Shown in pieces: positions 4,123-20,600 of a stretch of DNA of 32,000 bases. The position numbers and the translations under genes were made by a program. Numbering within the stretch: the stretch's first letter is position 1; every line of letters begins with the position of its first letter. The stretch is from Candidatus Kuenenia stuttgartensis (GTDB lineage Bacteria; Planctomycetota; Brocadiia; Brocadiales; Brocadiaceae). The notes under the pieces are model-generated. The model searched no databases. It saw only the letters and a list, made by a program, of their open reading frames with translations, and had not been told where the DNA came from. The stretch spans positions 300,001 through 332,000 of the forward strand of contig NZ_LT934425.1 of NCBI RefSeq assembly GCF_900232105.1, written 5' to 3'.

Positions 4123-4351
4123 CCCCCCTTTAAAAATGGCAGGAATACTACTCCAAAAGCAACCGCTGGTTTTGTTCTATCTTTGGTTAGCGGATAGAGA
4201 CTTTCTCCTTGTTCACCTGCCAATACCATTATAAGTACTTTTTAAACAAGTTATTATTCAATACCATAATCTGCTCTACACGATTTCAGCTATCAAGATT
4301 AACCCAAAATGTTTTCGCCACATTTTACCGACATCAGCGTGACTCGCCGTT

Positions 4352-5023: not shown

Positions 5024-8000
5024 TTATATAATCATACCTGTTTCTGCAATACCGGGGTCTTTATTCAATTCCTTTTTAAACTTACGTTCTTTTATCCATG
5101 CATTCAGGCATGGCACCAGAAAAAACACAATCATCGCCATTGTCATGCCCCCAATGGAAGGGATCGCCATTGGTTTTGCAATTTCAGCGCCTGCACCGGT
5201 TGACCATATAATGGGCATCAGGCCAATAAATGTTGTCGCAGAGGTCATTACGGCCGGGCGTATCCTTCTCGTCCCTGCCAAAACAATGGTATCCCTTATC
5301 TCCTGAATACTTTTTATTTTTTTATCCTTAAACAGATCATTTATATATGTAGTGATAAGTACACCATCGTCCTGGACGATGCCAAACAGAGATATAAAAC
5401 CTACCCAAACGGCCACGCTAAAATTATATCCGAATAAATACTGCAGCAGAATGCCGCCTGCAATGGCAGTCGGTACACTGGTTAATAAAATAATCAGCAC
5501 TTGCGAAAATGATCTGAATGCCACGAAGAGGATAATAAAGCCAACAAACTGAGACAACGGGACAAGTATCTGCAATCTCTTTCTTGCCCGTACCTGATTC
5601 TCAAACTGTCCGCTCCATTGAATAAAATAACCCTGCGGCAACATGACTTTCTCAGATACCACCTTAGAGGCTTCTTCGACAAAGCTCATGGGGTCTCTGT
5701 CCCGTACGTTCATAAGGACATACGCCCTTAAAAGGGCGTTTTCACTGCTGATCATGGCAGGTCCCATGACGTAACGGATATCTGCAACCTGTGTAAGGGG
5801 GATAAGTTTGCCTGTGGAGCTTGAAACATAAATCCTTTTCAGTGCATCAAAATTATCGCGGAGTTCCCGGACGTATCTGACCCGTACAGGATAGCGTTCC
5901 CTGCCTTCCACTGTCGTTGTAATATTTTCTCCCCCTATAGCGGTCTCAATAATATCCTGCACATCCTTAATATTTATGCCATAACGTGCAATCTCCTCCC
6001 GCTTTATTATGAATTCAAGATATGGCTTTCCGGTAATCCTCTCCGCATAAAGATCAACCGCCCCCGGAACATCCCTTAAAGCCTTTTCAACATCCAGTGC
6101 CAGTTGCTGCAGCACGTTCAGGTCTGTCCCAAATATCTTAACGCCAATCGAGGTGCGGATACCGGTTGCAAGCATGTCAACGCGGTTTACTATGGGTTGT
6201 GTCCATATGTTTGCCACGCCTGGTATCCTCATGGCTTCATCCATTTCCTGTATAAGCTCCTGTTTCGTAATCCTCCGCTCATCGGGCAGAAACAAGTGAA
6301 AGACCGGGTGCAGGAAGGAAGGCACATATTGCAGAAAACCATACTCTATCTTTTTCTTTCGCCATTCCTCTTCAGGTTTTAAGGTGACAATCGTCTCAAA
6401 CATCTCGGCAGGCGCCGGATCGGTAGGGGTTTCCGCCCTGCCCAGCTTTCCCACGACTATATCCACCTCCGGAAATGACTTGATGATAACATCCTGTTTC
6501 TGCATCACCTTGAACGCATCGGTAAGCGCAACGCTCGGCAGCATAACCGGCATAAAAAGGATGGACCCTTCGTCCAATGGTGGCATAAATTCCCTTCCGA
6601 TCCTTTTCGCAACAAAAACAGATAAAATAATCACAACGATGGGAATCGTAAGAAATAGTCTCTTATGCTCCAATACCCAACGAAGTATCGGCGTATACCC
6701 GCTCAGGAGCAGCCTTGAGGTATAATTTCTCTCCATTGGCCTCAGTTTGCCTTTTAACATAAAAAAGCAAAGTGTCGGCGCCAGAGTAAGTGCGAACACA
6801 ACAGACGCTCCTATTGCAAACGTCTTCGTCCATGCGAGGGGTTTAAAAAGTTTTCCCTCCTGCCCGGTAAGCCCAAACACAGGCATAAACATAAAAATAG
6901 TAGTAAGGCCGGCAAAGAGGATTGGTGCCCCCACTTCTTTGGAAGAGTCAAGTATTATTTGAAACCTGCTCTTTTTGCCTTCATATTCTATAAGATTCCT
7001 GTATATATTTTCGGTGACAATAATTGCCATATCACTCACCTCGCCAATGGCAATAGCAATACCGGTAATGGTCATAATGTTTGAATCAATCCCCATAAAA
7101 TACATGCCCAGGAAGGAAATGATTATAGCTATAGGGAATCCAAGACAGCAGACAATAATACTTCGAATGTGCAATAAAAAGAGGGCTACAACGACAGAGG
7201 TAATAATTATTTCTTCTATAAGCGCCTCTTTCAGGGTGGCAATGACGCGATATATAAGCCCTTCTCTGTCGTAGAAAGGTACTATTTTTACCCCTGGCGG
7301 CAAACCGGGTTCGATTTCCTTTATCTTTTCCTTTATTCGCTTTATAACCTTTAACGGATTTTCCCCCTGGCGCATAATAACAACCCCGCCTGCAACCTCT
7401 GCGCCTTCCTTGTCCAGCGCCCCCCGCCTGAAGTCGCCTCCAATCTGAACCGTTGCTACGTTTTTTACAAAGACAGGCACGCCGTTATTGCTGCCAACGG
7501 TAATATTCTCGATATCGGTAACGTTTTTAATAAACCCAAGGCCGCGTATAATAAATTCCATATTATTGTTTTCCACCACCTTGGCACCCACATCGATATT
7601 GCTTTTTCGAACAGCCTCAAACACATCTCCAACAGTCAGGTTGTGCGCCATTAATTTATTGGGGTCCACATCCACCTGATATTGTTTGACAAAACCGCCC
7701 ACACCAGCAACCTCCGAGACGCCTTCAACGGCATTGAGCTGGTATCTGACAAACCAATCCTGGATAGACCGCAATTGTCCGAGATCATATCCTTTCCCCT
7801 CAACGGTATACCAAAAAATCTGTCCAAGTCCGGTAGCATCCGGACCTAGTCTTGGGAGAACATCTTTTGGAAGCAATGCCTGTACAAAGTTTAATCTTTC
7901 AAGCACCCTGGAACGTGCCCAGTAAAAATCGATATTTTCCTTGAAGATAATATAGACCATGGAGAAACCAAACGCAGACTGTGAGCGTATGACCTTTACA

Positions 8001-8233
8001 CCAGGAACGCCCAGGAGATTAACGGTCAGAGGATAAGTAACCTGATCCTCCACGTCCTGCGGGCTACGGCCAGGCCAGTCGGTGAAGACAATACACTGGT
8101 TTTCCCCGATATCAGGAATAACGTCCATGTTGATATGCCTCACCCCGAAGAGACCGCCGAATATCACCAGCAGGTAAAAGCATATGACGAGGAAACGGTT
8201 GTTAAGACATAGTTCGATAAGTTTATTGATCAT
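5024..8233 (-). CDS. cusA: CusA/CzcA-family heavy-metal efflux RND permease
   Basis: 1069 aa with a 12-TM RND architecture. The N-terminus MINKLIELCLNNRFLVICFYLL...DVIPDIGENQCIVFTDWPGRSPQDVEDQVTYPL is typical of the HME-RND family. The protein looks full length and intact. Confidence 0.93.
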   Translation of the reverse strand: MINKLIELCLNNRFLVICFYLLVIFGGLFGVRHINMDVIPDIGENQCIVFTDWPGRSPQDVEDQVTYPLTVNLLGVPGVKVIRSQSAFGFSMVYIIFKENIDFYWARSRVLERLNFVQALLPKDVLPRLGPDATGLGQIFWYTVEGKGYDLGQLRSIQDWFVRYQLNAVEGVSEVAGVGGFVKQYQVDVDPNKLMAHNLTVGDVFEAVRKSNIDVGAKVVENNNMEFIIRGLGFIKNVTDIENITVGSNNGVPVFVKNVATVQIGGDFRRGALDKEGAEVAGGVVIMRQGENPLKVIKRIKEKIKEIEPGLPPGVKIVPFYDREGLIYRVIATLKEALIEEIIITSVVVALFLLHIRSIIVCCLGFPIAIIISFLGMYFMGIDSNIMTITGIAIAIGEVSDMAIIVTENIYRNLIEYEGKKSRFQIILDSSKEVGAPILFAGLTTIFMFMPVFGLTGQEGKLFKPLAWTKTFAIGASVVFALTLAPTLCFFMLKGKLRPMERNYTSRLLLSGYTPILRWVLEHKRLFLTIPIVVIILSVFVAKRIGREFMPPLDEGSILFMPVMLPSVALTDAFKVMQKQDVIIKSFPEVDIVVGKLGRAETPTDPAPAEMFETIVTLKPEEEWRKKKIEYGFLQYVPSFLHPVFHLFLPDERRITKQELIQEMDEAMRIPGVANIWTQPIVNRVDMLATGIRTSIGVKIFGTDLNVLQQLALDVEKALRDVPGAVDLYAERITGKPYLEFIIKREEIARYGINIKDVQDIIETAIGGENITTTVEGRERYPVRVRYVRELRDNFDALKRIYVSSSTGKLIPLTQVADIRYVMGPAMISSENALLRAYVLMNVRDRDPMSFVEEASKVVSEKVMLPQGYFIQWSGQFENQVRARKRLQILVPLSQFVGFIILFVAFRSFSQVLIILLTSVPTAIAGGILLQYLFGYNFSVAVWVGFISLFGIVQDDGVLITTYINDLFKDKKIKSIQEIRDTIVLAGTRRIRPAVMTSATTFIGLMPIIWSTGAGAEIAKPMAIPSIGGMTMAMIVFFLVPCLNAWIKERKFKKELNKDPGIAETGMII

Positions 8234-8341
8234 AGGAATAAGAAACCACAGGTTGCACGGATTAAAAAAAAGAACAAGTAACCTGATTGCTCAGATTATT
8301 TTATTTTGTATTCAAACCTCTGTCATCCATTTTGATAAAAT

Positions 8342-8708
8342 TCAATTTTTGAACCTTCTATAATGAAGGGATTCTTCGCCAAAGTTTATAAGCAATCCTG
8401 TGCTATGGCGACTAGTAATAAGGCTATTTATTAACTGTGCTTCATCGACCTTTGACAAAGATTTTTCTGCTTTTATTTTCAACTATAATTTCATTGTAAA
8501 CAATGAAATCCGTAACATAATATTTTTTCAACTTTTGTTCTTTATAAAATATTTCCAATCGAAGTTGAGAAATAAATGGGGCATTTCTTAATTTGAACTC
8601 AATTTCCAAACATTCCTGATAAACGGCCTCCAGGCGTCCTGGTCCTATGATTCTGTGAACCTCCATTGCCGCTCCAATAATTTCATGTGTTCTTACATCT
8701 CTATCCAT
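8342..8708 (-). pseudogene. GxxExxY family protein (PD-(D/E)XK-like), frameshifted
   Basis: Frame A (8442..8708) reads MDRDVRTHEIIGAAMEVHRIIGPGRLEAVYQECLEIEFKLRNAPF...IIVENKSRKIFVKGR and stops. The expected C-terminus resumes in another frame: KIKAEKSLSKVDEAQLINSLITSRHSTGLLINFGEESLHYRRFKN, with its stop at 8342-8344. The shift lies in the A-rich run near 8470-8490. Total length would be ~122 aa, typical of the family. Confidence 0.75.
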
Positions 8709-8814
8709 ATATTTACCAACACCCTTTTATTTTACCAATTCTTAATCTTGAACAGGTTTTATCTGTGTGATCTGTACTACTATCCATCAATTTCTTGTTT
8801 TTTATGCGTGTTTT

Positions 8815-10371
8815 TCATGCCGCCATTTCCGTAAGTGCTTTAATATCAAGGGCTGAAGCGGTCATCAGTGAACAAGAGAACTTCTGGCCTTTCTCCGTCA
8901 AAACATAGCGGTTGGCCCTCGGAACTTTGCGGATTAGACCGTGTGCCCGCAGCATCTTTATCCGTCGGGTCGTTCGTCCGGAATATTTCTTTTGCTGATC
9001 CTTGCCGGATTGTTCGGATTCCCGGTAAAGCCACTTACGCAAATCATGGTTGCGGAATCCATTTATCGCGTTTTCGCCTTTGGACAGGAACATCAGCATC
9101 TGGTAATCATCCTGCTGCCAGGGATTCAAACCTCGATACCTCTTGCCCTCTTTGACAACCTTGTTACAAGCGCTGCTCACCACTTCTTTCAGTTTCTCCT
9201 CTACCTGAGCCGCCGCCAAAGCATCCCCATAACGATCATTGCATTGTTGGCTCACCTCACACCGTCGATGAAGATCGCTTACGCCCTTACGCATCTTCTG
9301 CCATGACGCCGGTTTGCCTTCATCATCATTGGGACTCCGAAAGACCTTAAAGTCCCGCGTATTATTGATCGTTGTCTCAATACGCAAGAGACTACCGCTC
9401 TTGTTATACATCTTCACTGAATTATAATTCACACTGTGCTTGACCCGTATACCTTCATAGCGTCTTCGATAGTCGCTGATAACCTCATCAGGGGCAGCGC
9501 CTGCAAGGTTACGCCTACCCAAATACTTCATCACCGAAGAACTGTCGCAAACCCGCATCGCATGATGAACAAACGATGGAAACAACTCCTCCAATGCCTC
9601 AACCGATTTAAACATGATGTCCGTCGCCCACTCCGTCTCATCCGCAGACCAGTAATACTCCGGTTCCAACGGACGAAGAATCTGCGACAATGCCGGGCAA
9701 CTGCCTAACGCAAGCCCGTTCAGCAGCTTCGCCCAGTCAGTCTTAAGCTGCTCATGGAGCAGAACCTGCGCAGCCGCAATATCCTCTATACGCACAAAAC
9801 AGTTGCCGTCCTTAACATAATCAATACCTTGCTTCTGAAGTTGCCGCTCCAGCCAATGACGACCATTGAGACAAATGAAAATATTAAACGGCGCCCAACT
9901 CTGGATACGAACATGACCAAAACCAAACACTGGATCATTAAAATAATGATACACAAAGACACACTTGCGGGGCGCCATTACCAACTCGAGCTTCTTGCTG
10001 GCCTTGTTGCCCTTGACCATCGGCGCAATACAAGGCTCTACCACACTCAACAGGCAGATGGAACCTTCCGTAATCCTCTTATCCGCCGCGATCTGGCGAG
10101 CCAACTTCTCCTTATCAACACCGCTGCTCATCAAATACCGCACCTCGATACCCAAATCTTTCGCCCGCGATTCACAACTGTCTCGCACCTGTGCCGTAAG
10201 CCCATTGACCCAACCGGAAAAATCCTTAAGCAGAATTCTCGCTTGGTTCATGAATGTTCCCATCCCACGCTCACTGGCCAACCACCGCAATGTCCCGCGA
10301 AAACGAATCCTGTCCAGACCGCTTATTGCACCCACGATCCTGTCTCGATATAATTCCATCAACTTATTCAT
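8815..10371 (-). CDS. Conserved-looking 518-aa protein of unknown function with a basic winged-helix-like C-terminus; possible mobility protein
   Basis: A long uninterrupted ORF with a strong SD (GGAGGA 7 nt upstream). The C-terminal segment RTTRRIKMLRAHGLIRKVPRANRYVLTEKGQKF resembles a wHTH wing. I found no DDE, HUH, Tyr or Ser recombinase motif. It lies inside the putative insertion. Confidence 0.8.
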   Translation of the reverse strand: MNKLMELYRDRIVGAISGLDRIRFRGTLRWLASERGMGTFMNQARILLKDFSGWVNGLTAQVRDSCESRAKDLGIEVRYLMSSGVDKEKLARQIAADKRITEGSICLLSVVEPCIAPMVKGNKASKKLELVMAPRKCVFVYHYFNDPVFGFGHVRIQSWAPFNIFICLNGRHWLERQLQKQGIDYVKDGNCFVRIEDIAAAQVLLHEQLKTDWAKLLNGLALGSCPALSQILRPLEPEYYWSADETEWATDIMFKSVEALEELFPSFVHHAMRVCDSSSVMKYLGRRNLAGAAPDEVISDYRRRYEGIRVKHSVNYNSVKMYNKSGSLLRIETTINNTRDFKVFRSPNDDEGKPASWQKMRKGVSDLHRRCEVSQQCNDRYGDALAAAQVEEKLKEVVSSACNKVVKEGKRYRGLNPWQQDDYQMLMFLSKGENAINGFRNHDLRKWLYRESEQSGKDQQKKYSGRTTRRIKMLRAHGLIRKVPRANRYVLTEKGQKFSCSLMTASALDIKALTEMAA

Positions 10372-10505
10372 AAGTAGTGTCCTCCAAATTGTCTGATTAC
10401 TATTTACGAGGATACTACTATACTTTATAATAAACTAAAAATCACCTTTTTGGTTGCGGCCAAAGGCCGCGCTAGGAAATCTGTGGTTTCAAAGTATTTT
10501 TTTGC

Positions 10506-12485
10506 CTATTTTTCTTCCTTAAACTCCATCGCTCCGCCATACAATGCACTTGCTCCGCCTGTAAGCTGGCTCTGGGAATCGATGAGGAAATTTGCTGATG
10601 TGACAACCCTGTCACCTTCTTCAAGCCCCTCCATCACAGGATAATAATCGCCCGCTTTTGGCCCAAGAATCACTTCCTTCCCAACGTATTGACCGTTGCC
10701 TTTATCAATATAGACAATCTTTCGTACACCCGTATCCAAAACTGCCGTGGCAGGAATGGCAAGCATTTGTGTGATTTTTTCAAGACGCATTCCGCACCTG
10801 GTGCAATTATCAGGTTTATCCGATGTTACTTCAGGATGCATGGGGCAGGTGTAAATGGTACGTTTTCTGTGTTCTGTTTTTTTCACCTTCATTCCCACAC
10901 CTTCCCTAACTTCCCATCTGCCCATTTGCCTTTTACAGTCGGGACATTCACCAGGCTTATCCGAGGTCATGCATGCCATAGGGCACATATAGACATACTT
11001 TTGTATCTTTTCACCAGTGGGCGAAGTTACCGTTATACTCTTCTGAAGCATCATACCACACATAGGACAAGACTTTGGGGAAGTATCAGGGTCCCATTCC
11101 TGCGGACAAATGCACGTCACCGTTTCATCAACAGGCATTTCCTTTTTTTCGAGATGCATACCACATACCGGGCAATCACCCGGTTTGTCAGACACATAAC
11201 AATTCATCGGGCATACATACTCATATTCAGTTTCCCCAATTCCCTCTGTTTTGCCTTCGGCAGTCATTTCAAGCCGCGCCGAGGTTTTTTTTATAAATGG
11301 GACATTATCCTCGGGGCATATACCGGGTCTGCTTGATTTAATTTCAGGATGATTGGGACATACATAATCCAGTCCGCTCACATAGGTTCTGTCTCGTTCC
11401 TCCAGTTCTTCAACAGGTATACGTATGCGGGCATTGACATACATGGCAGGTTTGAGTCTGAGCTGACGGTTAGGAATATCACACCGTATTTTCACAGAAC
11501 GCGTCTTATCGTCAAGAAACGGTTCTATAAACGATACCGTTCCGATAAATGCCTCTCCGGGATATGCAGGAGTTGTGACTTCCACCTCCTGTCCAACCTT
11601 TATCCACGCCATTTCATACTCATAAATGTTGGCCATCATCCAAACCTTGGAAAGATCGGCAAGGGTGTATATCATCTCGCCCGTCATAACATATTGCCCT
11701 TCCAGCATCTTCTTCTCTATGACAATACCGCTTATCGGGGCATAGATGATCGTATGTTGTTTTATTTTTCTGTTTCTTGCAAGTTCTTCAATCTGTCTTT
11801 CACTAATACCCCACCATAACAACCTTTTTTTGGTTGCATCTATGAGAGATATTGTGCCGTCCACCACTTCCTTAAAAGGGCTATTCTCTACTTTTTCAAA
11901 GGTTTCCAGCGCCAACAGATACTCTTTCTGTGTAGATACCAGATCAGGACTATACATCCATACCAATGACTCGCCTTTCACTACCTCTGTACCGGTGAAA
12001 TCAATAAACAGTTTGTCTATCCTGCCAGGAATCCATGCGGAAACAACCGCTTTAAGCCGTTCATCGTATTCAATCAATCCAACCGTATAAACATCTTTAG
12101 TTAACGACCGGAATCCGATAACGTCAGTTTTAACCTGTGCCAGTTTACGGGCGCGTTCACTTAATTCTACGGAGGCTAATGCACCTTCTTCCTCCATACC
12201 TGCACCTTTTTCGTATACAGGAACTAAATCCATGGCGCAAATAGGGCATTTTCCTGGTTTATCCATCCTGACGGAAGGATGCATCCCGCATGTCCAGTAG
12301 ATTATCTTCTTTTCTTTTGTTTCTTCAGCATTTGCGGAAGAAATAAAATTTATCCCATCCTGTAGAGACGCATTGCAATATGTCTCTACATAATTGGATA
12401 TTTGTATACCAGAAAGAACACTAAGTATGACAGTGACTATTATTATAAAATATCTCAAGGAAAGAAATTTTTGTTTAAACAACAT
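10506..12485 (-). CDS. cusB: CusB-like RND periplasmic adaptor (membrane fusion protein) carrying six HMBD-like modules
   Basis: The ORF track starts at TTG 12503. I prefer ATG 12485 (MLFKQKFLSLRYFIIIVTVILSV, a TM anchor). The MFP core is present (barrel-sandwich, hairpin and beta-barrel sequence, then LAIPATAVLDTGVRKIVYIDKGNGQY...VTSANFLIDSQSQL). HMBD modules: IYWTCGMHPSVRMDKPGKCPICAMDL; YVCPNHPEIKSSRPGICPEDN (degenerate); YVCPMNCYVSDKPGDCPVCGMHL; CICPQEWDPDTSPKSCPMCGMML; YMCPMACMTSDKPGECPDCKRQM; YTCPMHPEVTSDKPDNCTRCGMRL. Confidence 0.9.
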   Translation of the reverse strand: MLFKQKFLSLRYFIIIVTVILSVLSGIQISNYVETYCNASLQDGINFISSANAEETKEKKIIYWTCGMHPSVRMDKPGKCPICAMDLVPVYEKGAGMEEEGALASVELSERARKLAQVKTDVIGFRSLTKDVYTVGLIEYDERLKAVVSAWIPGRIDKLFIDFTGTEVVKGESLVWMYSPDLVSTQKEYLLALETFEKVENSPFKEVVDGTISLIDATKKRLLWWGISERQIEELARNRKIKQHTIIYAPISGIVIEKKMLEGQYVMTGEMIYTLADLSKVWMMANIYEYEMAWIKVGQEVEVTTPAYPGEAFIGTVSFIEPFLDDKTRSVKIRCDIPNRQLRLKPAMYVNARIRIPVEELEERDRTYVSGLDYVCPNHPEIKSSRPGICPEDNVPFIKKTSARLEMTAEGKTEGIGETEYEYVCPMNCYVSDKPGDCPVCGMHLEKKEMPVDETVTCICPQEWDPDTSPKSCPMCGMMLQKSITVTSPTGEKIQKYVYMCPMACMTSDKPGECPDCKRQMGRWEVREGVGMKVKKTEHRKRTIYTCPMHPEVTSDKPDNCTRCGMRLEKITQMLAIPATAVLDTGVRKIVYIDKGNGQYVGKEVILGPKAGDYYPVMEGLEEGDRVVTSANFLIDSQSQLTGGASALYGGAMEFKEEK

Positions 12486-12554
12486 AATTATCGCACCTTT
12501 CAAAATATAGCGTAATGAAGTAATGATTTTGCCTTAAACTTTTAGAGTAAAAAC

Positions 12555-13142
12555 CTATTTTTGAAACCGCTCTTGTTTTTTTTCACAAATTGGACAGGCC
12601 AGAAAGTCTATATCGCATGTCTTGCAATGCTGAATAAGCCATTCCTGCGACTTCATCCTGCAATCCCGGCATTTCATTTTCCAGGTTGCCAATGCCTTTC
12701 CCTTCACATATCTTGAGAGTACCTTTTTGCACTTGGGGCACTTGCCTATCATTGTTTCGGCTTTTAAACCAGCGGATGCCTTTTGACACGCTGTGCATAC
12801 AAGAACGTCTTTTCCACACTTGTCACAATGATGGACTTCGAGTGCTGATACTTCACTTTTGCAGTCAGGGCAAACCATACTTTTTGCGGCAAGTGCCTTT
12901 TCTTTCTCCGGACTTACATACACTTTCTCACAAAAAGGGCACATGGGTGGCTCTGTGGTTGAATGCTCAGCCAGCGGGTCGTTTTCACTGTGTTTGTGCG
13001 CTACCTCGCCAGCATACATCAGATTACCTCCCCACAGAAGTAGATACATAATTACCGGCGCAACTGTTTTTATAAATTTCTTACAAACCATGGTATCACC
13101 ACTTTTCATTAAAAGATTACTAATTCTTTTCCCTTTTACCAT
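12555..13142 (-). CDS. Secreted cysteine-rich protein with two tandem 4xCxxC (double zinc-ribbon-like) units
   Basis: 195 aa. ATG 13142 is preceded by GGAGGT at 8-nt spacing and overlaps the ATPase 3' end by 23 nt. The hydrophobic leader is VAPVIMYLLLWGGNLMYA. Unit A is MCPFCEKVYVSPEKEKALAAKSMVCPDCKSEVSALEVHHCDKCGKDVLVCTACQK. Unit B is KCPKCKKVLSRYVKGKALATWKMKCRDCRMKSQEWLIQHCKTCDIDFLACPICEK. Confidence 0.8.
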   Translation of the reverse strand: MVKGKRISNLLMKSGDTMVCKKFIKTVAPVIMYLLLWGGNLMYAGEVAHKHSENDPLAEHSTTEPPMCPFCEKVYVSPEKEKALAAKSMVCPDCKSEVSALEVHHCDKCGKDVLVCTACQKASAGLKAETMIGKCPKCKKVLSRYVKGKALATWKMKCRDCRMKSQEWLIQHCKTCDIDFLACPICEKKQERFQK

Positions 13143-15876
13143 ATTTAACTACCTCCATGATAATGAAGGTAAGAGAAGAAAAACCAAAGACGGTAATCCA
13201 ATCAATTAACTCCAGCGGTCTTACTCTGAAAATATCTTCGAAGAAAGGGGTATAGACGATAGCCACCTGTATGGCCAACGAAATCCCCGCTGCCAGCAGG
13301 AGTTTATTATTGGTAAAAACACCAATTTCAAATAAGGAACGTCTTGCATTCCTGCAGTTAAAAGAGTGAAATAATTGTGAGACGACCATCACACAGAAGG
13401 CAATTGTTCTGGCCAGCTCGATATCCCCACGCAACAGGTGAGGAGCCGCTTCATTACAAAACCAGTGGTAAAGATAGTCAGGTATTGCACGGGTTCCATA
13501 GTACAGGACATACGTATATGCCAGAAGGGTACTCATGGCAATGAGAAAACCCTGAAATAGAATCAGGATACCTAGACGCTTGTCTATGATTTGTTCTGTT
13601 GACCTTCTTGCCAGTCTTTTCATAATGTCAGGATCTACCGTATCGACACCCAAGGCCAATGCCGGCAGACCATCGGTGGCAATATTTATCCATAATATCT
13701 GGATAGGGAATAGGGGGATAGGAAGATTGAATATCGATGCGAGGAGCATTGTCAAAATCTCACCGGTATTACACGAGAGCAGATAGTGGATGGACTTCTT
13801 AATGTTGTCATAAATACCTCGTCCCTCTTCAATGGCTGCCTCTATGGAAGCAAAATTGTCATCCGTTATAACCATATCGGACGCCTCTTTTGTGACATCG
13901 GTTCCTGTAATACCCATGGCTACGCCGATGTTTGCTTCTTTTACAGCAGGGGCGTCATTTACGCCGTCACCGGTCATGGCCACAACGTCTCCCTGTTTCT
14001 TCCATGCCTTTACAATCCTGAGTTTGTGTTCAGCAGTTACACGTGCATATACGGCTATCTTTGACACTTCTTTTGCTAAATCGTCATCGGAAAGCGCATC
14101 TAACTCTATTCCATCAATAGCCTTTGAGGAATTGCTGCTAAGAAATCCCAGCTCTTCCCCAATAGCCCGGGCTGTATTCTTGTGATCACCCGTAATCATG
14201 ACCGTCTTTATACCGGCTGTATGACAAACGGCAACGGCTTCTTTGACCTCTGGTCTGGGTGGGTCAATCATGGCTAATAGTCCCACAAAGATCATCTCTC
14301 TTTCTACTGTGTCAGGGACAGGGTTGGTGATTTCCCGGTCAAGAGGCTTGTATGCCACACCGAGGACGCGCAGGGCAGACCCTGCCAAATTATTGTTTTC
14401 CTCCAAAATGACCTGTATATCGTTTTCTGTCAAATCCCTTGTCGTTCCATCATGATAAATCTTTGTACAATCCTGTAAGATTACATCAGGCGCACCTTTT
14501 TCACATACCTGTAAAGCAGGGGAGGTACCTCTTATTGTAGACATCTTCTTTCGTTCTGAATCAAAAGGAATTTCTGAAATGAGGGGGAATTGTTTATCCA
14601 ACATTTCCTTCCAGATACCTGTCTTTCCTGCTGCACTTAAGATGGCGCCCTCTGTAGGGTCGCCAATAACCTTCCATGTAGCGTCTTCTTTTTTAAGGTG
14701 GGTATTGTTACATAACACACCTATTTCCAGTGTCTTTTCGAGTGCTTTCTGGTCAATTCCCAGAAGAGATTCTCCGTTGACAAGAAAATTTCCATCCGGC
14801 ATGTAACCCGTCCCCGATACGTCAATGGTTTTACCATTGGCAAATATCTTTCTTACGGTCATCTCGTTTTGTGTTAAAGTGCCTGTTTTGTCTGAGCAAA
14901 TAACTGTAGCACATCCCAAAGTTTCTACTGATGGAAGCTTTCGGATCAGTACGTGCCGTTTCACCATGCGTTGCACCCCTAAGGCTAAGGCAATAGTCAC
15001 GATTGCTGGAAGACCTTCCGGAATGGCAGCCACGGCAAGGCTCACAGATATGAGGAATGCCTCTAATAATGGATCCTTTCTACACAACTCCAAAAGGAAT
15101 ACGATTGTTACGATCCCCAAACACAAATAAACCAATTTTTTCCCAAACACCTCGAGCTTTCGCTGAAGGGGGGTCTCTTCCTTCCCTGCCTCCTGAATGA
15201 GACCGGCAATCTTGCCCAACTCTGTGTGCATTCCCGTTGTTACAATAACGCACGTCCCTTTACCACTCGTTACCGAGGTCCCCATAAATACCATATTTTT
15301 CTGATCGGCAATGGGTAAAGAAGGATTGGGGAGTGGTTCAGTGGACTTACCAACCGGCGTTGACTCTCCTGTAAGAGAAGCCTCTTGGGTCATAAAACTA
15401 AAGGAAGAGCATAGTCTGCCATCAGCAGGGACGTAATCACCTGCCTCCAACAATACAATATCTCCCGGCACAATATCCCGGGAGGGGATGGATTGTATTT
15501 CGCCGTTCCGTGTTACCCTTGAAAAGGGTGCAGACATTTTTTGTAAGGCCTCAAGTGATTTCTCCGCGCGGTATTCCTGTATGAACCCAATAATCGCATT
15601 AATAATAACGATAGCAATAATGGCTAACGCATCGATCCATTCCCTCAAAACTCCGGAGACTATGGCGGCAGCAATCAATACCCAGACAATAAAGTTATTA
15701 AACTGCCCCAAAAAGAGGATGAAGGGAGATACACCTTTTTTTTCTTCCAGTTGATTGTATCCGTATTTCTTTAGCCTGTTTTCCGTTTCGTTAAGGCTAA
15801 GTCCGGCGTCAACCGAAGTATCAAGGTTCTTTATTACCTCATTGGCATGCATTGTATGCCACTGTAATTCAGTCAT
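13120..15876 (-). CDS. P-type cation-transporting ATPase, P2 (SERCA/PMCA-like, Ca2+/cation) subtype
   Basis: 918 aa. Motifs present: CSDKTGTLT phosphorylation site, TGDGVNDAPA, TM4 IPEGLPA, and TM6 WINIATDGLPALALG. There is no N-terminal CxxC metal-binding domain and no CPC motif, so it is not a P1B copper pump. Confidence 0.9.
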   Translation of the reverse strand: MTELQWHTMHANEVIKNLDTSVDAGLSLNETENRLKKYGYNQLEEKKGVSPFILFLGQFNNFIVWVLIAAAIVSGVLREWIDALAIIAIVIINAIIGFIQEYRAEKSLEALQKMSAPFSRVTRNGEIQSIPSRDIVPGDIVLLEAGDYVPADGRLCSSFSFMTQEASLTGESTPVGKSTEPLPNPSLPIADQKNMVFMGTSVTSGKGTCVIVTTGMHTELGKIAGLIQEAGKEETPLQRKLEVFGKKLVYLCLGIVTIVFLLELCRKDPLLEAFLISVSLAVAAIPEGLPAIVTIALALGVQRMVKRHVLIRKLPSVETLGCATVICSDKTGTLTQNEMTVRKIFANGKTIDVSGTGYMPDGNFLVNGESLLGIDQKALEKTLEIGVLCNNTHLKKEDATWKVIGDPTEGAILSAAGKTGIWKEMLDKQFPLISEIPFDSERKKMSTIRGTSPALQVCEKGAPDVILQDCTKIYHDGTTRDLTENDIQVILEENNNLAGSALRVLGVAYKPLDREITNPVPDTVEREMIFVGLLAMIDPPRPEVKEAVAVCHTAGIKTVMITGDHKNTARAIGEELGFLSSNSSKAIDGIELDALSDDDLAKEVSKIAVYARVTAEHKLRIVKAWKKQGDVVAMTGDGVNDAPAVKEANIGVAMGITGTDVTKEASDMVITDDNFASIEAAIEEGRGIYDNIKKSIHYLLSCNTGEILTMLLASIFNLPIPLFPIQILWINIATDGLPALALGVDTVDPDIMKRLARRSTEQIIDKRLGILILFQGFLIAMSTLLAYTYVLYYGTRAIPDYLYHWFCNEAAPHLLRGDIELARTIAFCVMVVSQLFHSFNCRNARRSLFEIGVFTNNKLLLAAGISLAIQVAIVYTPFFEDIFRVRPLELIDWITVFGFSSLTFIIMEVVKYGKREKN

Positions 15877-15900: not shown

Positions 15901-16812
15901 TCATGTCTTATACTGCATTTTTAATCTTTTCCTGTAATTCACACAGGGATGGCTTTCACTTGTTTCGCACAGATGCTTGTCTTCCTCGTTGTCTTTATAT
16001 AATCTTTGTATGCACACTTCGAGAGGCGACTCTGACACACTATATTTGTCAGACGGCAACAATATACACGATGCTGTATAACCTTCCGGATTAATATGGA
16101 TGAATTCACTTCCCGCCTTCCTGCTACAGTCCAAGAGACGGCCATCATTTGGAAGATGCAGTAAGTAGGTATTCGTTCTTTCTTTCAGATTTAAAAACCA
16201 TTGCCTAAATAAAGTCCGTTGTTGTGTTGATAGGGATAGCCCGTAATCATGCGATCTGCCAGTCGGTATATATTCTATAAATAATCCTAACTTGGCGCCA
16301 AAAGGGTACTTTTCCAAAAATGCCTCTTCTACTTGAATTAATTCAACATTCTCTGCTGTAACCGTGATAGAAAAACCATAGAGTATTTTATTGTTTTTCA
16401 GATTTGCAAAGGCATTCATAACATTATGATAGACACCAGCGCCCCGTCGTTTATCAGTCTCTCTTAAATCTCCTTCCAAACTAATTACCGGAATTATATG
16501 CGGTAATCCGGACAACTTTTTTGCAACAGCTTCAGAAATCATAGTCCCATTCGTTATCAGGATAAAAAAACTATTCTTATGGCCGCTTAAAATCTCCATG
16601 AGATTTGGATATAGCATAGGCTCGCCACCCGTAAGCATAAAAATGAAACTACCCAATGATTCAGCTTGTAAAAGAATATTTTCTAACATTTCTCCCGGCA
16701 AAATTTTTTTTTCCTTATAGATCCTGGCATAACAATGATCACAGGCAAGATTGCAATCAGAGAGAAGACTTATAAAAATAGTATGAGGGATGGGATTGCC
16801 ATTATTATCCAT
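15901..16812 (-). CDS. Radical SAM protein with a twitch/SPASM-like C-terminal Cys motif
   Basis: 303 aa. CNLACDHC is the CxxxCxxC motif, GGEP is present, and the C-terminal CSRKAGSEFIHINPEGYTASC fits C-x14-G-x4-C and is followed by 3 more Cys. The start is uncertain: there is no SD, and the frame stays open upstream. Confidence 0.85.
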   Translation of the reverse strand: MDNNGNPIPHTIFISLLSDCNLACDHCYARIYKEKKILPGEMLENILLQAESLGSFIFMLTGGEPMLYPNLMEILSGHKNSFFILITNGTMISEAVAKKLSGLPHIIPVISLEGDLRETDKRRGAGVYHNVMNAFANLKNNKILYGFSITVTAENVELIQVEEAFLEKYPFGAKLGLFIEYIPTGRSHDYGLSLSTQQRTLFRQWFLNLKERTNTYLLHLPNDGRLLDCSRKAGSEFIHINPEGYTASCILLPSDKYSVSESPLEVCIQRLYKDNEEDKHLCETSESHPCVNYRKRLKMQYKT

Positions 16813-16987
16813 CAGTTTATATTTCTTCTTTATCTTTTTATAAAAATTCCATAATACCCCCAGGTATCCGGGAAAAGTAAATACCCATGGTAAAAAGGCC
16901 TTCCTGAAAATGCGAAGAATATATTCATTACTATTGTTACTGGAAGATAGGGGGCATTATATTATTTATTTTTATAAATATTTAAAT

Positions 16988-17347
16988 TTACTTGTTTTCT
17001 AATAATTCTTTTATCTTATTTTTCAATTCTTGAAGATCAGAGGATTTTCTTATGTACGCATCGGCTGACCAGGACAAAAAACTTACCTTATAACAACTAA
17101 ACGCCGTGTTAATAATGATTGGTATTTTCCTGTGTTTGCTTAAAATTTTCCCCATAGCTTCGAGTCCATCCATTTTTGGCATAATAATGTCCATGACTAT
17201 TATGTCCGGCAAATAATCATTTACCACTTTTATGCCTTCTACGCCGTTCCTTGCGGTGATAACATTATACCCCTCGCTTTCCAATTCCTGTTTATACAGT
17301 AATAGTTGGTTTTTATCATCTTTTACTACAAGAATGGTTTTCATCAT
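16988..17347 (-). CDS. Stand-alone CheY-like response regulator receiver domain
   Basis: 119 aa. MMKTILVVKDDKNQ...PDIIVMDIIMPKMDGLE...PIIINTA...K gives the acidic pocket, the phospho-acceptor Asp and the conserved Thr/Lys pattern. There is no output domain. Confidence 0.88.
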   Translation of the reverse strand: MMKTILVVKDDKNQLLLYKQELESEGYNVITARNGVEGIKVVNDYLPDIIVMDIIMPKMDGLEAMGKILSKHRKIPIIINTAFSCYKVSFLSWSADAYIRKSSDLQELKNKIKELLENK

Positions 17348-17414
17348 GTATCTCTTAACTAACTTATAATTATCTACTTCATCTGCACAATCTTTAATAT
17401 TAAATATCTCAAAT

Positions 17415-17528
17415 TTATAAGGCTATCGGCATCCGATGTACAAATGTGGATGCCCTTGATACCATGGGGAAAAACACAACGATTGCACCTAAAATGCTTA
17501 ACATTGATAGATGTTTTTTTGTTAACAT
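17415..17528 (-). pseudogene. Orphan copy of the RBS plus signal-peptide region of the octahaem cytochrome gene (37 codons, then a stop)
   Basis: Hand translation MLTKKHLSMLSILGAIVVFFPMVSRASTFVHRMPIAL(stop), against the cytochrome N-terminus MLIRKHLSMLSVLIAIVVSFPMVSGASAFVYQMTPMAL. The DNA aligns over ~115 bp with 24655-24769 at roughly 80% identity by eye. Confidence 0.7.
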
Positions 17529-18214
17529 AAAACATCTCCTTTGGGAAATTTATAAACGACACAATTGTTTTACACATTGTAAAACTATCACAAGTTTTAT
17601 GCAGTGTCAAATATAATTTTATAATTGGAAAATAGTTTTAAATAAATTTTAATACACGAGGCAGGTTATTGTCTGTATGGTATTAACTTCCCGAATATAG
17701 CGTCATTAATATCTATGCAACAAGGTCTTCCTGGCAGAAGACATATACACAAACACAAATTTACTGATTTGAAATAAGCACAAATTAATTGTTGCAAAAT
17801 ATTTGATAAATGCATCAATTAATTTGATCTTCACATGTATAAGGAATTTCAATTCTTTCGTTATGTTTTAAAACACTCTACAGGAAATCCCTTTTAAGTA
17901 TGATATATGTTATCGTTTAGATGAAGGTTAATACAAAGGCCAATCCAGTGAATTTTTAATAGCCATGCAAAACGTTGTTTTAAGAAACAAGGCTATTGTT
18001 TTTATTGTATCGAACCTAAAGTAAATACTGCTTTTTAAAACATATTTTAGCAGCTTTTTTGTTCAGAGATTTTTCTATTTCTTTCAATTCCTTATCTCTC
18101 TAAAGAATAAAATTGTTTAAATCTGTTATTGAATTTCCTATGCTACACAAGACAACAGAGGCTGGAATAATAAGCAACTTCATGATACCTATTATTATTC
18201 TTTATTTTTTAAAT

Positions 18215-18430
18215 TTAAGATACTTCATCTATTTTGTATTCATCGGTTAGGCCAATGATGAGTAATATATTCCGTTGCTTCCTGAACATGCAGTTCACGG
18301 GTACCCCCCCTCCTGTACGATGACAAAATTTTACATCATTACATTCCCGGTAATATACAGGTCGCGAAGAAGGTTCAATAATGATATGACAAATTTCTTT
18401 AGCCTCTAAGATGTGATGTATATTCACCAT
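18215..18430 (-). CDS. Hypothetical small protein (71 aa) tightly coupled to glgX
   Basis: ATG 18430 lies 1 nt after the glgX TGA (18432-18434). The sequence is MVNIHHILEAKEICHIIIEPSSRPVYYRECNDVKFCHRTGGGVPVNCMFRKQRNILLIIGLTDEYKIDEVS. I recognise no family. Confidence 0.4.
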   Translation of the reverse strand: MVNIHHILEAKEICHIIIEPSSRPVYYRECNDVKFCHRTGGGVPVNCMFRKQRNILLIIGLTDEYKIDEVS

Positions 18431-18431
18431 T

Positions 18432-20600
18432 TCAGGCAAGAGGCGATGACCTCCTTTCCTCAACTAATTGAAGCAATACAAGGGATCGTGCTTCAAGGCT
18501 GTAAAGTTCTCCACCCTTCATTAGTTGTATGCTTCTCTTTCCCGTTGCTTCCCGCGTGTCTATAAGTGTCTTCCACTGTATTTTTGGATTATGCGCCGGC
18601 AAAACGAAAGAGATAGATTCATGATGAACGTTCATTAAAATCAACAGTGTGTCATCTACAATTTGTTTTCCACGTTCATCAACTTCTTCTATTGCATAAC
18701 CGGCCAGGCAGAGCGCTAAAGAGTGGGTACTAGGATTATTCCAGTCCTCATCGGTCATTTCCTTCCCATCAGGCCGGAACCATGTAAGGTCTTTTACCTC
18801 TGAGCCGGTAATCTTTCGTCCCTGAAAAAAGTGCCGCCGCCTCATGACAGGATGTTGATGGCGTAGTTGAGTTAGGAGACGGGTGAATTCCAGGAGTTCC
18901 TGCCGCGGTTTATCCAGATCCCAGTCTATCCATGAAATCTCATTGTCCTGACAATATGCATTATTGTTACCCTTTTGGGTACGGCCTATTTCATCTCCTG
19001 CCAGCAACATGGGTACCCCCTGTGATAGTATAAGGGTGGCAATAAAATTGCGTTTTTGCCGCTCTCGTAATTTTGCGACTTCCTGGTTGTCGGTTGGTCC
19101 TTCTATTCCACAATTCCAGCTCAGGTTGTAATCTGTTCCATCCTTGTTTCCCTCTCCGTTAGCCTCATTATGCTTTTCATTATAACTAACGAGGTCGTGA
19201 AGACAGAATCCATCGTGTGCCGTTATAAAGTTTATGCTGGCATATGGCCTTCGGCCTCCGTGCTCGTAAAGATCACTGCTCCCTGTCAGACGATAGGCAA
19301 GATTCCCTGCTACACCTTTATCACCATGCCAGAATTGTCTCACCGTATCACGATATTTTCCGTTCCATTCCGTCCAGAGGATGGGAAAATTTCCTACCTG
19401 GTAACCTCCTGGCCCCAGGTCCCATGGTTCGGCAATAAGTTTGACTTGCGACAACACCGGGTCCTGATGGATTATATCGAAGAAGGCGCCAAGCCGGTCT
19501 ACTTCATGAAGCTCGCGTGCCAGGGCAGACGCCATGTCAAAACGGAACCCGTCAACGTGCATTTCCAGCACCCAATACCGTAAGCTGTCCATAATAAGTT
19601 GAAGTACACGCGGGTGTATCATATTCGGCATATTTCCGCATCCTGTGTAATCCACATAATAGCGCTTGTTGTCTGATGCAAGGTGGTAATAATTGGCGTT
19701 GTCTATTCCGCGAAAAGAAAGAGTTGGCCCCAGATGATTTCCTTCAGCAGTATGATTGTATACCACATCGAGAATGACCTCTATACCTTCGCGGTGGAAG
19801 GTTTTAACCATGGTCTTAAACTCATTAACCTGCTCTCCCATTATACCGGAACCGGAATAACGCGCCGCCGGAGCGAAAAATCCTATAGAATTGTAACCCC
19901 AGTAATTAGAAAGACCGCGTCCGATGAGATCTTTTTCATCCACGAAATGGTGTACCGGCATTAATTCAACTGCGGTAATTTTCAGTGAATGAAGGTAATC
20001 TATTACCGCATGGCATGTCAGGCCGGCATACGTCCCTTGCAGTTCTTTTGGTACACCAGGATGTTGTTTCGTAAAGCCTTTCACATGCAGCTCATAAATC
20101 AGGGTCTTATGCCATGGAGTGCCAGGGGACACATCATCTCCCCATGTAAATGCGGGATCAACGACAACACACCTGGGGATATTAGGCGCACTGTCTCCAT
20201 CGTCTTTGGAAAGATCAGCTTCCTTGTGCCCCGGTGTATAGCCAAACAGCGCATCACTCCAGCAGATGGTTCCAGAGATCGCCTTGGCGTATGGATCCAG
20301 TAAAAGTTTGGCCGGATTAAACCTGTGACCTGACTTAGGTTCATAGGGACCATAAACACGGTATCCATAAAGTTGACCCGGGCGCACTGTGGGTAGATAG
20401 GTATGCCAGACCTGATCGGTGTGATGAGCCATCCGGATACGGGCTACTTCATGATTTCCGTCCTGTCCATCGAATAGACACAATTCCACACCCGTGGCAT
20501 TCTCTGAGAAGAGCGAGAAGTTAACCCCCGCTCCATCCCAGGTAGCGCCAAGCGGATACGCTTTACCTGGCCATTCAGTCATATGTGTAATTTCGTTCAT
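18432..20600 (-). CDS. glgX: Glycogen debranching enzyme GlgX (GH13 isoamylase-type)
   Basis: 722 aa. The N-terminus is PGKAYPLGATWDGAGVNFSLFSENATGVELCLFD. GH13 catalytic regions are present: DVVYNHT, GFRFDMAS, EPWD, FITAHDGF. Confidence 0.93.
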   Translation of the reverse strand: MNEITHMTEWPGKAYPLGATWDGAGVNFSLFSENATGVELCLFDGQDGNHEVARIRMAHHTDQVWHTYLPTVRPGQLYGYRVYGPYEPKSGHRFNPAKLLLDPYAKAISGTICWSDALFGYTPGHKEADLSKDDGDSAPNIPRCVVVDPAFTWGDDVSPGTPWHKTLIYELHVKGFTKQHPGVPKELQGTYAGLTCHAVIDYLHSLKITAVELMPVHHFVDEKDLIGRGLSNYWGYNSIGFFAPAARYSGSGIMGEQVNEFKTMVKTFHREGIEVILDVVYNHTAEGNHLGPTLSFRGIDNANYYHLASDNKRYYVDYTGCGNMPNMIHPRVLQLIMDSLRYWVLEMHVDGFRFDMASALARELHEVDRLGAFFDIIHQDPVLSQVKLIAEPWDLGPGGYQVGNFPILWTEWNGKYRDTVRQFWHGDKGVAGNLAYRLTGSSDLYEHGGRRPYASINFITAHDGFCLHDLVSYNEKHNEANGEGNKDGTDYNLSWNCGIEGPTDNQEVAKLRERQKRNFIATLILSQGVPMLLAGDEIGRTQKGNNNAYCQDNEISWIDWDLDKPRQELLEFTRLLTQLRHQHPVMRRRHFFQGRKITGSEVKDLTWFRPDGKEMTDEDWNNPSTHSLALCLAGYAIEEVDERGKQIVDDTLLILMNVHHESISFVLPAHNPKIQWKTLIDTREATGKRSIQLMKGGELYSLEARSLVLLQLVEERRSSPLA

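Follow-up and report, generated by a model that had tools for sequence, protein, structure and literature searches.

A widespread 1.7-kb insertion sequence in Candidatus Kuenenia stuttgartensis with a single putative Rep_trans-like tyrosine nuclease gene

Between the genes for a CusB-like membrane-fusion protein (10506-12503) and a CusA-like RND pump (5024-8233), in a 32,000-nucleotide stretch of Candidatus Kuenenia stuttgartensis (contig NZ_LT934425.1, positions 300,001 to 332,000; the whole of this stretch is hereafter "the window"), lies an open reading frame (ORF) for a protein of 518 amino acids (aa), adjoined by a truncated GxxExxY/PDDEXK_3 ORF (8442-8708). The 518-aa frame occupies the minus strand, begins with ATG and has a GGAGG Shine-Dalgarno (SD) sequence 8 nt 5' of that codon; no other long stop-free ORF is present there. 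An earlier model-made annotation (the original prediction), which gave no strand, had described it as a clean coding ORF with a strong SD of its own and had quoted four peptide blocks from it, and all of these features, the four blocks included, were found again. We describe here the evidence that this gene belongs to a mobile insertion sequence (IS), and consider how its product might move it. Coordinates of the features discussed are collected in Table 1.

The 1700-bp unit that contains the gene is mobile. An identical 518-aa protein is encoded at no fewer than 10 sites of the 4.33-Mb genome CP049055.1 ("Ca. Kuenenia stuttgartiensis", which we take to be strain CSTR1), in contexts as unrelated as ftsW/murG and fliN/fliO, and the window and 10 CP049055.1 loci share the same DNA, which ends abruptly at either side. 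Using the window's CusA, which occurs in many assemblies, to find the corresponding locus elsewhere, we observed that cusB-GxxExxY-cusA is occupied in the window and at locus L103, and empty in CP049055.1 and four other assemblies (empty site seen at loci L101, L102 and L104-L106). The empty site reads ...GAAACCACAGATTTCACAGATCACACAGATAAAACC..., that is, ...CAGATTTC^ACAGATCAC..., and the occupied site ...CAGATTTC/CTAGCGCGG...GGATAGTAGT/ACAGATCAC..., with exactly 1700 bp extra between C and A and with neither duplication nor deletion (left end (LE) junction flank-C^CTAGCGCGGCC, right end (RE) junction GATAGTAGT^ACAGAT, empty site TTTC^ACAGATC). From this comparison the ends of the element are known to the base, and the insertion to which the original prediction had alluded is thus real and delimited to window positions 8776-10475. 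That the gene could instead encode an ordinary chromosomal ArsR/MarR-type regulator of the metal-efflux locus might be suggested by its C-terminal winged helix-turn-helix (wHTH), by its location between cusB and cusA and by the ArsR-family name given to a homologue in RefSeq; this reading, to which we attach virtually no credence, is already refuted by the occurrence of the gene in at least 10 unrelated contexts and by its absence from the same locus in five assemblies.

As an independent check of the ends, we considered a relative with 57% identity that is present in six copies in OW818658.1, where perfect 27-bp inverted repeats (palindromes) spanning the junction reappear once exactly CTAG...TAGT (1803 bp) is removed from the sequence. 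Eight further genomes hold 3-6 near-identical copies each, in units of 1.70-1.80 kb, and the multi-copy genomes include Brocadiaceae, Victivallales, Thermoguttaceae, Verrucomicrobiae, Terriglobia and one deltaproteobacterium. Across the ~80 loci examined, none has a second gene inside the unit.

Some copies occur in more complex arrangements. Locus L086 (4089-4243) holds a derivative of ~155 bp resembling a miniature inverted-repeat transposable element (MITE), made up of LE, ~100 nt and RE only, which lies head-to-tail directly after a full element (junction TAGTAGT/ACAGCGCGGC). At L080 (~1591-1640) two elements occupy neighbouring 9-nt units of one array (RE/ACAGAGTTC/LE), and at L094 (~4236-4300) an RE fragment abuts the LE of a different subfamily; both are nested or tandem insertions. 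One copy in CP049055.1 (L017, 3028750-3036306) sits in an IS-rich hotspot amid remnants of other elements (DDE_Tnp_1, ISL3, HTH_Tnp_1), at the target with the poorest fit to the consensus described below, tCACCGGACCATC^ACAGAACAC.

Database searches leave the protein outside every named family. The 518-aa sequence has no match to a DDE, HUH, serine- or tyrosine-recombinase family in Pfam, NCBIfam, PHROGs or PADLOC, in agreement with the original prediction, which could read no such signature in it; its sole matches there are to winged-helix models, all below threshold, at aa 460-502 (Pfam, NCBIfam, PHROGs), in keeping with the basic winged-helix-like C-terminal segment noted previously. It matches no PDB sequence, and neither 73 diverse relatives nor the family profile recognise a catalytic-domain family. 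More than 4500 close matches were found, each named one a "hypothetical protein" and none with a Pfam domain, and nearly all of the contigs that carry them are 1.7-2.4 kb long; most contigs with the gene are no longer than the element. At E <= 1e-3 the family amounts to 5502 representative clusters at 50% identity, with loci in Planctomycetota, Verrucomicrobiota, Acidobacteriota, Desulfobacterota, Pseudomonadota, Actinomycetota and others, which bears out the resemblance to multi-copy hypothetical proteins in other phyla that the original prediction had suggested. Homologues are named in RefSeq as "hypothetical protein" or "ArsR family transcriptional regulator". The literature searched, which did not extend to ISfinder, contains no description of the family or of any Rep_trans-type transposase, and papers on Kuenenia genomes discuss abundant annotated transposases, the 518-aa gene not among them.

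The element represents an undescribed, very widespread, new IS family. Its protein matches no known IS or housekeeping family, it is multi-copy and its insertion is polymorphic between strains, in support of the earlier suggestion of an unclassified transposase-like family. The same source had left undecided whether the gene drives the element or is a DNA-binding accessory or defence gene. We favour the driver, because the unit contains no other ORF and its conserved ends co-vary with the gene down to 29% identity. PADLOC returned no defence-system match for the gene. We are highly confident that this is a mobile IS with the 518-aa ORF as its transposase.

The element has no terminal inverted repeats (TIRs), and the inverted repeats that the original prediction proposed to look for around its copies were not found. 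Its ends are instead asymmetric. In 25 family members the LE follows the pattern N-Y-A-G-C-G-C-R-G-C-(loop)-G-C-C-G-C-A-A-C-C-A-A-A, with loops that vary and a GC-rich hairpin 5 nt from the terminus; in 25/25 members it is the strand antisense to the ORF that forms the more stable hairpin, A.C mismatches on the sense strand being G.T wobbles on the antisense. The RE ends in (A/T)TAGTAGT, ~40 nt past the stop codon, and in many relatives carries a subterminal hairpin whose stem is altered by compensatory substitutions (e.g. CTTCGCG-GCA-CGCGAAG and CTTTGCG-CCT-CGCAAAG); no strand asymmetry was detected for this hairpin, for which the regex extraction was noisy. Both LE and RE motifs are kept down to 29% protein identity, the Paraburkholderia plasmid homologue having the two.

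The 5' untranslated region (5'-UTR) contains a further stem. A -10-like TATAGT (10417-10422) overlaps its upstream arm, and the minimum free energy fold pairs both arms at -17 kcal/mol; the window's own SD stem matches at 11/12 positions, with one mismatch. In most of the 13 subfamilies checked, a stretch of 8-15 nt is perfectly complementary to the SD/start region, differing in sequence each time, and in 8 of the 13 this complement is rarer than 7 of 500 shuffles. The stem probably blocks translation of read-through transcripts, an anti-read-through 5' stem being a classic IS device (IS10, IS50). We also considered TATAGTAGTAT in the LE as an internal copy of the RE terminus and rejected this, as it is not conserved in other subfamilies; it is probably just the -10 box. 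Rfam gave no match to the element, and promoter and terminator scans returned nothing informative.

Every insertion lies at C^A-Y-R-R-A, with a similar CAYRRA unit 9-10 nt upstream, and is usually preceded by (A)ACCA. The targets are degenerate 9-nt periodic CAYRRA arrays, often the arms of long palindromes (long and perfect in OW818658.1), and the empty site demonstrates that they pre-date insertion. Identical Kuenenia copies were inserted at ACAGA, ACGGA, ACAAA, ATAAA and ATATA. The LE itself starts with CTAG, ACAG, CCAG or TTAG, which implies that the sense strand would be cut at both boundaries and at the target 5' of N-Y-R-R, equivalent to 3' of Y-Y-R-N on the antisense strand. IS608 follows the same logic: related cleavage tetranucleotides are present both in its flanking target and at its own end. 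The flanks had suggested two further models, a 5-bp target duplication displaced by 2-3 "extra" nt and a coupling sequence like that of Tn916/CTnDOT; both were rejected, because the empty site already contains the direct repeat, in the form of a 9-nt periodic array.

Long perfect palindromes of this kind were observed in unrelated phyla (Table 1) and are the preferred target of the IS. Their arms reach 27 bp, their loops span 14-37 nt, and they consist of 9-nt periodic CACGGA/CACAGA units. They could be repeats of the repetitive extragenic palindromic (REP) type, a protein-binding array or the ends of MITEs.

This anatomy can be set against that of known transposon classes. It is of IS200/IS605 type in lacking TIRs and target-site duplications (TSDs), in having subterminal hairpins at either end, beyond which the cleavage sites lie, and in inserting beside a short, specific, conserved sequence similar to the one at which its own terminus is cleaved; MITE-like derivatives are also common to both. 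Unlike IS200/IS605, the element encodes a protein of 518 aa rather than ~150, with a different fold and no HUH/Y1 domain (PF01797 is absent from the 518-aa protein and 73 relatives), and local GC skew, a crude proxy, revealed no replication-strand bias. A reading in which the 518-aa protein is a passenger or accessory, such as a DNA-binding regulator or TnpB-like helper, and the unit is moved in trans by an IS200/IS605 Y1 TnpA or a host recombinase recognising the end hairpins, would draw on precisely these likenesses. tnpB-only elements are common in IS200/IS605, a Y1_Tnp gene is present in the same genome (locus L014), and the wHTH is the only domain recognised from sequence, one homologue being named an ArsR-family regulator in RefSeq. 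We nevertheless judge this distinctly unlikely: all units measure 1.70-1.80 kb and none of the ~80 loci has a second gene, the ends co-vary with the protein across phyla, the LE and RE hairpins resemble neither each other nor a shared TnpA site, and a domain of 390 aa in which 16 polar or aromatic residues are invariant exceeds what a regulator needs.

With the 518-aa protein retained as the transposase, the remaining classes differ from the element in other respects. IS91/ISCR and Helitron elements resemble it in that their two ends differ, insertion causes no duplication and a short specific target adjoins the end that lies downstream of the gene; they too have a single large ORF, related to rolling-circle Reps, a relationship that is putative for the 518-aa protein. 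The family has no HUH Y2 transposase (PF04986, PF14319) or Zn-finger domain, and both ends are precise in all copies seen, with no sign of one-ended read-through. IS110/IS1111 elements resemble it in the absence of TIRs and TSDs and in fixed-orientation insertion into REP-like palindromic repeats, but there is no DEDD transposase (PF01548 + PF02371), Transposase_20 or RuvC-like fold, Rfam is empty, and the non-coding LE is only 104 nt, taken up mostly by the end hairpin and the SD-sequestering stem. A strict RNA guide is further argued against by identical copies lying beside different sequences (ACAGA, ACGGA, ATAAA, ACAAA). For DDE insertion sequences we found no DDE model in Pfam or among NCBIfam IS models, no RNase H-like Foldseek match, no TIR and no TSD, and for tyrosine and serine site-specific recombinases no domain or fold match and no shared core of >=1 nt at the junctions.

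The structure of the protein was predicted with AlphaFold2 (AF2) from a 73-sequence alignment, for the full protein (mean predicted local distance difference test (pLDDT) 91.7, predicted template-modelling score (pTM) 0.85) and, in a separate run, for aa 1-390 (pLDDT 94.5, pTM 0.92). The model contains the strand order b1-a-b2-b3-b4-b5-a twice; its strands are very long, and a helical linker then leads to a winged helix with the pattern helix-helix-helix-strand-strand. The latter is matched by Pfam HTH_45 (E 0.0056, window protein) and by the MarR structure 3bj6 in PDB (E 0.042, family profile), and HVO_A0261_N is matched by 33/73 members. Foldseek returned nothing from PDB at E <= 1e-3; the listed top 50 matches include neither an RNase H-like structure nor a tyrosine or serine recombinase, and the one HUH relaxase match is negligible (TM 0.10). 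The top structural matches are TBP-fold proteins, namely the Terrestrivirus TBP (E 3.3e-4, prob 0.99) and A0A2N9QVX7 in BFVD, and TBP 1tbp and 1mp9 in PDB at a TM of ~0.4 (TMt 0.41, E 0.1).

Conservation across the 73 sequences picks out a set of candidate active-site residues. D20, Y322, R330 and E332 are invariant, K320, K324 and D251 are conserved at >=90%, and E247 is invariant even in homologues of 21-29% identity in which D251 is lost; in the model the residues of the motifs compared below lie on strands, Y322-N-K324 on the predicted beta-strand 317-324. The original prediction had proposed a search for conserved acidic triads. An acidic triad does exist, but it is not of the DDE/RNase H kind and instead accompanies an invariant Tyr in a Rep_trans-like arrangement. 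In homologues of 21-23% identity (L112-L114, from Rhodococcus and Mycolicibacterium plasmids, and, for L113, Caballeronia) the Y322/E332 block is kept and the N-terminal D20 strand is apparently missing or diverged, though annotated starts may be wrong; these homologues adjoin IS110, IS256 and IS630 genes.

The Rep_trans active site is made up of motifs N' (D), I (RxD), II, III (YxKxxE) and IV ([WL]xRxE), with the Tyr on a beta-strand and D, D and E binding metal (PMC5714925). Aligned by motif, pT181 RepC and the 518-aa protein read SFD46AMTIVGNL and GLD20RIRFRGTL, RLD142LAF and ATD251IMF, FIRIY191NK and SVKMY322NK, and LWRVE214 and LLRIE332. L328-x-R330-x-E332 is an exact and invariant match to motif IV, and the E-to-Y spacing is 16 residues in both RepC (E175 to Y191) and the 518-aa protein (E306 to Y322). 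The conserved block KMY322NK...LxR330xE332, together with D20 and E247/D251, parallels the Rep_trans active site, with homology unproven by profile and structure searches. Taken as a whole, the Rep_trans/MobT set with which we compared the protein (PF02486, PF22477; pT181 RepC, pC221 RepD, CTXphi RstA, Tn916 Orf20, ICEBs1 NicK; structure 4CWC) shares with its model a TBP-like domain of two repeats, catalytic in the set and putatively so in the 518-aa protein, a Tyr on a beta-strand in [KR]-h-Y-N-K followed by L/W-x-R-x-E, a first-strand Asp (D-x5-G-x-L) and a repeat 2 whose first strand bears an acidic residue; common to both are also DNA sites that contain hairpins and, as an expectation, single-strand nicking and rejoining. 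In contrast to that set, the 518-aa protein is ~200 aa longer, with large insertions and a C-terminal wHTH, and lies in a chromosomal element present in multiple copies, not in a plasmid, phage or integrative and conjugative element (ICE); transposition is not among the Rep_trans roles given in PMC5714925 or PMC13107129.

We place the probability that the 518-aa protein is a Rep_trans-like tyrosine nuclease moving a new IS at about 0.6, and judge the tyrosine-nuclease mechanism, suggested by motif and predicted fold, to be somewhat better than an even bet. Several points weigh against this reading. Motif I of the 518-aa protein has no Arg and motif III no Glu at +5, and the most distant homologues have lost D251. 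PF02486, PF22477 and DUF7845 were unmatched at E <= 5 by 73 diverse members, and the first two were matched neither by the window protein (E <= 1) nor by 4 distant homologues, pT181 RepC as a control matching both models. HHalign was not significant (E 0.33 with RepC, 0.21 with 120 RepC-like sequences, 0.075 with 9 diverse Rep_trans), while its alignments pair D20/D46, D251/D142 and Y322/Y191. RepDE (4CWC) is outside the top 50 Foldseek PDB matches for the full and the aa 1-390 model alike, the TM to TBP is only ~0.4, and the comparison of the candidate residues covers sequence order and strands. The hairpin of the LE does not resemble that of the RE, in which the element differs from IS200/IS605, and a search of JGI metagenome contigs for an RE-LE circle junction of the element gave 0 matches. 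Orientation is unbiased with respect to local GC skew, a crude proxy (5 positive and 4 negative in Kuenenia, 21 versus 19 in other genomes), which lends no support to single-strand targeting at the replication fork; neither this nor the junction search decides the mechanism. Finally, that catalysis is due to the 518-aa protein and not to a factor in trans is something we infer from its being the sole, co-evolving ORF.

The absence of statistical support for Rep_trans homology, and of 4CWC from the top Foldseek matches, would also suit a 518-aa transposase whose hydrolytic, DDE-like metal centre is built into a new fold, or one that uses some other chemistry, in which no covalent Tyr intermediate is formed and the likeness to Rep_trans is convergent or accidental; D20, E112, E247 and E332 are invariant acidic residues that could furnish such a centre. 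This appears unlikely to us, given that there is no RNase H-like fold, that the TSDs and inverted-repeat ends usual for DDE elements are both absent, and that the invariant K-x-Y-x-K followed by LxRxE reproduces the Rep_trans catalytic strand pair in order and spacing.

A second comparison for the tyrosine-nuclease reading is provided by Rep-Arvir (DUF7845), a TBP-fold rolling-circle Rep with a MarR-like wHTH that is distantly related to Rep_trans, and whose catalytic Tyr and acidic ligands were confirmed by mutagenesis (PMC13107129, 2026). As in Rep-Arvir/RepSNJ2, the Rep of archaeal pleolipoviruses and plasmids, an N-terminal TBP-fold domain (catalytic in Rep-Arvir, predicted in the 518-aa protein) precedes a MarR-like wHTH, Foldseek returns viral TBPs from BFVD, A0A2N9QVX7 among them, and no significant match from PDB (PMC13107129), and a Tyr is accompanied by E/D/E ligands, catalytic in Rep-Arvir and candidates in the 518-aa protein. 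The two differ in that Rep-Arvir is archaeal and serves virus or plasmid replication whereas the 518-aa family is bacterial and forms IS-like units, in the context of the Tyr (KHYYM versus KMYNK), and in that the family has no sequence match to Pfam catalytic-domain models at E <= 5. A Rep_trans-like and Rep-Arvir-like architecture that joins a TBP fold to a wHTH has to date been met only in plasmid or phage replication and in ICE relaxases (PMC5714925, PMC13107129), and many database contigs are of unit length, as might be expected were the unit a minimal integrated rolling-circle replicon or satellite that encodes only a Rep and enters by host-mediated integration, as in IMEX and CTXphi. We consider this very unlikely. 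There are at least 10 identical copies at different chromosomal sites, the unit-length contigs have differing flanks and no wrap-around junctions, no RE-LE junction was found, the targets are degenerate CAYRRA arrays rather than a dif-like site, and the 1.7-kb unit has neither a second-strand origin nor another gene.

If the protein is indeed a Rep_trans-like transposase, its N-terminal 390 residues would form a TBP-like pseudo-dimer acting as a metal-dependent tyrosine nuclease, with Y322, on its beta-strand, as the nucleophile and D20, E247/D251 and E332 as metal ligands. The protein would bind the end hairpins and AACCA-type sequences, the winged helix contacting the ends and/or the AACCA-containing target, and would nick one strand at both element boundaries via Y322, forming 5'-phosphotyrosine links; a second nucleophile might be Y141 or Y143, or be supplied by a second subunit. 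A single strand would then be moved, either by peel-and-paste as in IS200/IS605 or by rolling-circle copy-out as in IS91, and be rejoined at a matching C^AYRR site, which would leave no target duplication. The SD-sequestering 5'-UTR stem would keep outside transcripts from expressing the gene. Whether a TBP-fold, Rep_trans-related tyrosine nuclease constitutes a new mechanistic class of transposase, moving a 1.7-kb IS by single-strand cleavage and rejoining, is in our estimate an evenly balanced question. In its behaviour the element resembles single-strand HUH transposons, and its enzyme is unrelated to theirs and probably Rep_trans-like.

The known chemistries of prokaryotic transposases are DDE, DEDD, HUH, serine, tyrosine and Cas1. 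Were the proposed mechanism correct, Rep_trans/TBP-fold nucleases, so far tied only to plasmid and phage replication and ICE transfer, would join them, and the family would be a non-HUH counterpart of IS200/IS605 and IS91 with thousands of variants across most bacterial phyla. It is absent from the NCBIfam IS-family HMM sets, Pfam and genome annotation, and its recognition would name, and assign a function to, >5000 protein clusters now "hypothetical" or mis-annotated as ArsR regulators, explain many orphan contigs of 1.7-2 kb and metagenome assembly breaks, and improve IS annotation for anammox bacteria, in which transposase-linked rearrangements are prominent (PMC7709395). Scarless, duplication-free and orientation-specific insertion at a short degenerate site by a small element with one protein may also serve DNA insertion.

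Table 1. Positions of the element, its parts and associated repeats (window coordinates unless a locus is named).
Feature	Position	Strand	Details
Complete mobile element, 1700 bp	8776..10475	-	In gene orientation 5'-CTAGCGCGGCC...GATGGATAGTAGT-3'
Sole ORF, 518 aa, putative transposase	8815..10371	-	
Left end (LE)	10449..10475	-	Terminus CTAGC; hairpin GCGGCC-TTT-GGCCGC (10456-10470); then AACCAAA
5'-UTR stem	10373..10419	-	Arm AGTAGTATCCTC (10408-10419) pairs with SD region GAGGACACTACT (10373-10384)
Right end (RE)	8776..8814	-	39 nt past stop codon, ending ...AAGAAATTGATGGATAGTAGT; terminal TAGTAGT conserved
Left half of target	10476..10490	-	GAAACCACAGATTTC: first 9-nt unit and C of the C^A point
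Right half of target	8757..8775	-	ACAGATCACACAGATAAAA: rest of pre-existing array CACAGATTT-CACAGATCA-CACAGATAA
Codons 1-390, putative catalytic domain	9202..10371	-	Two TBP-like alpha/beta repeats (AF2, BFVD TBP matches)
Codons ~455-505, C-terminal MarR/ArsR-like wHTH	8857..9009	-	Profile matches and AF2
Candidate active-site codon D20	10312-10314	-	
Candidate active-site codon E112	10036-10038	-	
Candidate active-site codons Y141/Y143	9943-9951	-	
Candidate active-site codon E247	9631-9633	-	
Candidate active-site codon D251	9619-9621	-	
Candidate active-site codons K320-Y322-K324	9400-9414	-	
Candidate active-site codons R330/E332	9376-9384	-	
Inverted copy at GxxExxY gene	8242-8265	+	
Inverted copy at GxxExxY gene	8757-8775 plus 10476-10490	-	
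Inverted copies at GxxExxY gene, locus L101	3445-3480, 3965-3990		
Palindrome, locus L036	2246-2305		
Palindrome, locus L038			
Palindrome, locus L052			
Palindrome, locus L073	4190-4259		
Palindrome, locus L025	640-698		
Palindrome, locus L039	4246-4298		

The surroundings of the insertion provide several minor observations. Between cusB and cusA, the truncated or frameshifted GxxExxY/PDDEXK_3 gene is flanked by inverted copies of GAAACCACAG(A/G)TT(T/G)CAC(A/G)GAT... (Table 1), and gene and inverted arrays together look like a small inserted cassette whose terminal arrays are the target of the IS. GxxExxY genes likewise lie 25-65 nt from the IS target at loci L010 and L014. An obligatory tie between targets and GxxExxY genes was considered and rejected, such an association being true of 3/11 Kuenenia loci and of one weak case elsewhere.

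The CusB-like protein, encoded on the minus strand, contains five HMBD heavy-metal-binding repeats, and the cus locus also codes for a P-type ATPase (13120-15876) and a Cys-rich 195-aa protein (12555-13142), with an outer-membrane factor and a multicopper oxidase encoded downstream of cusA. The IS splits the cusB-cusA pair, with a possible polar effect on the pump. Further along the window, positions 16500-18500 form a stretch of low GC content (0.28-0.34, against ~0.43 around it) with few long ORFs.

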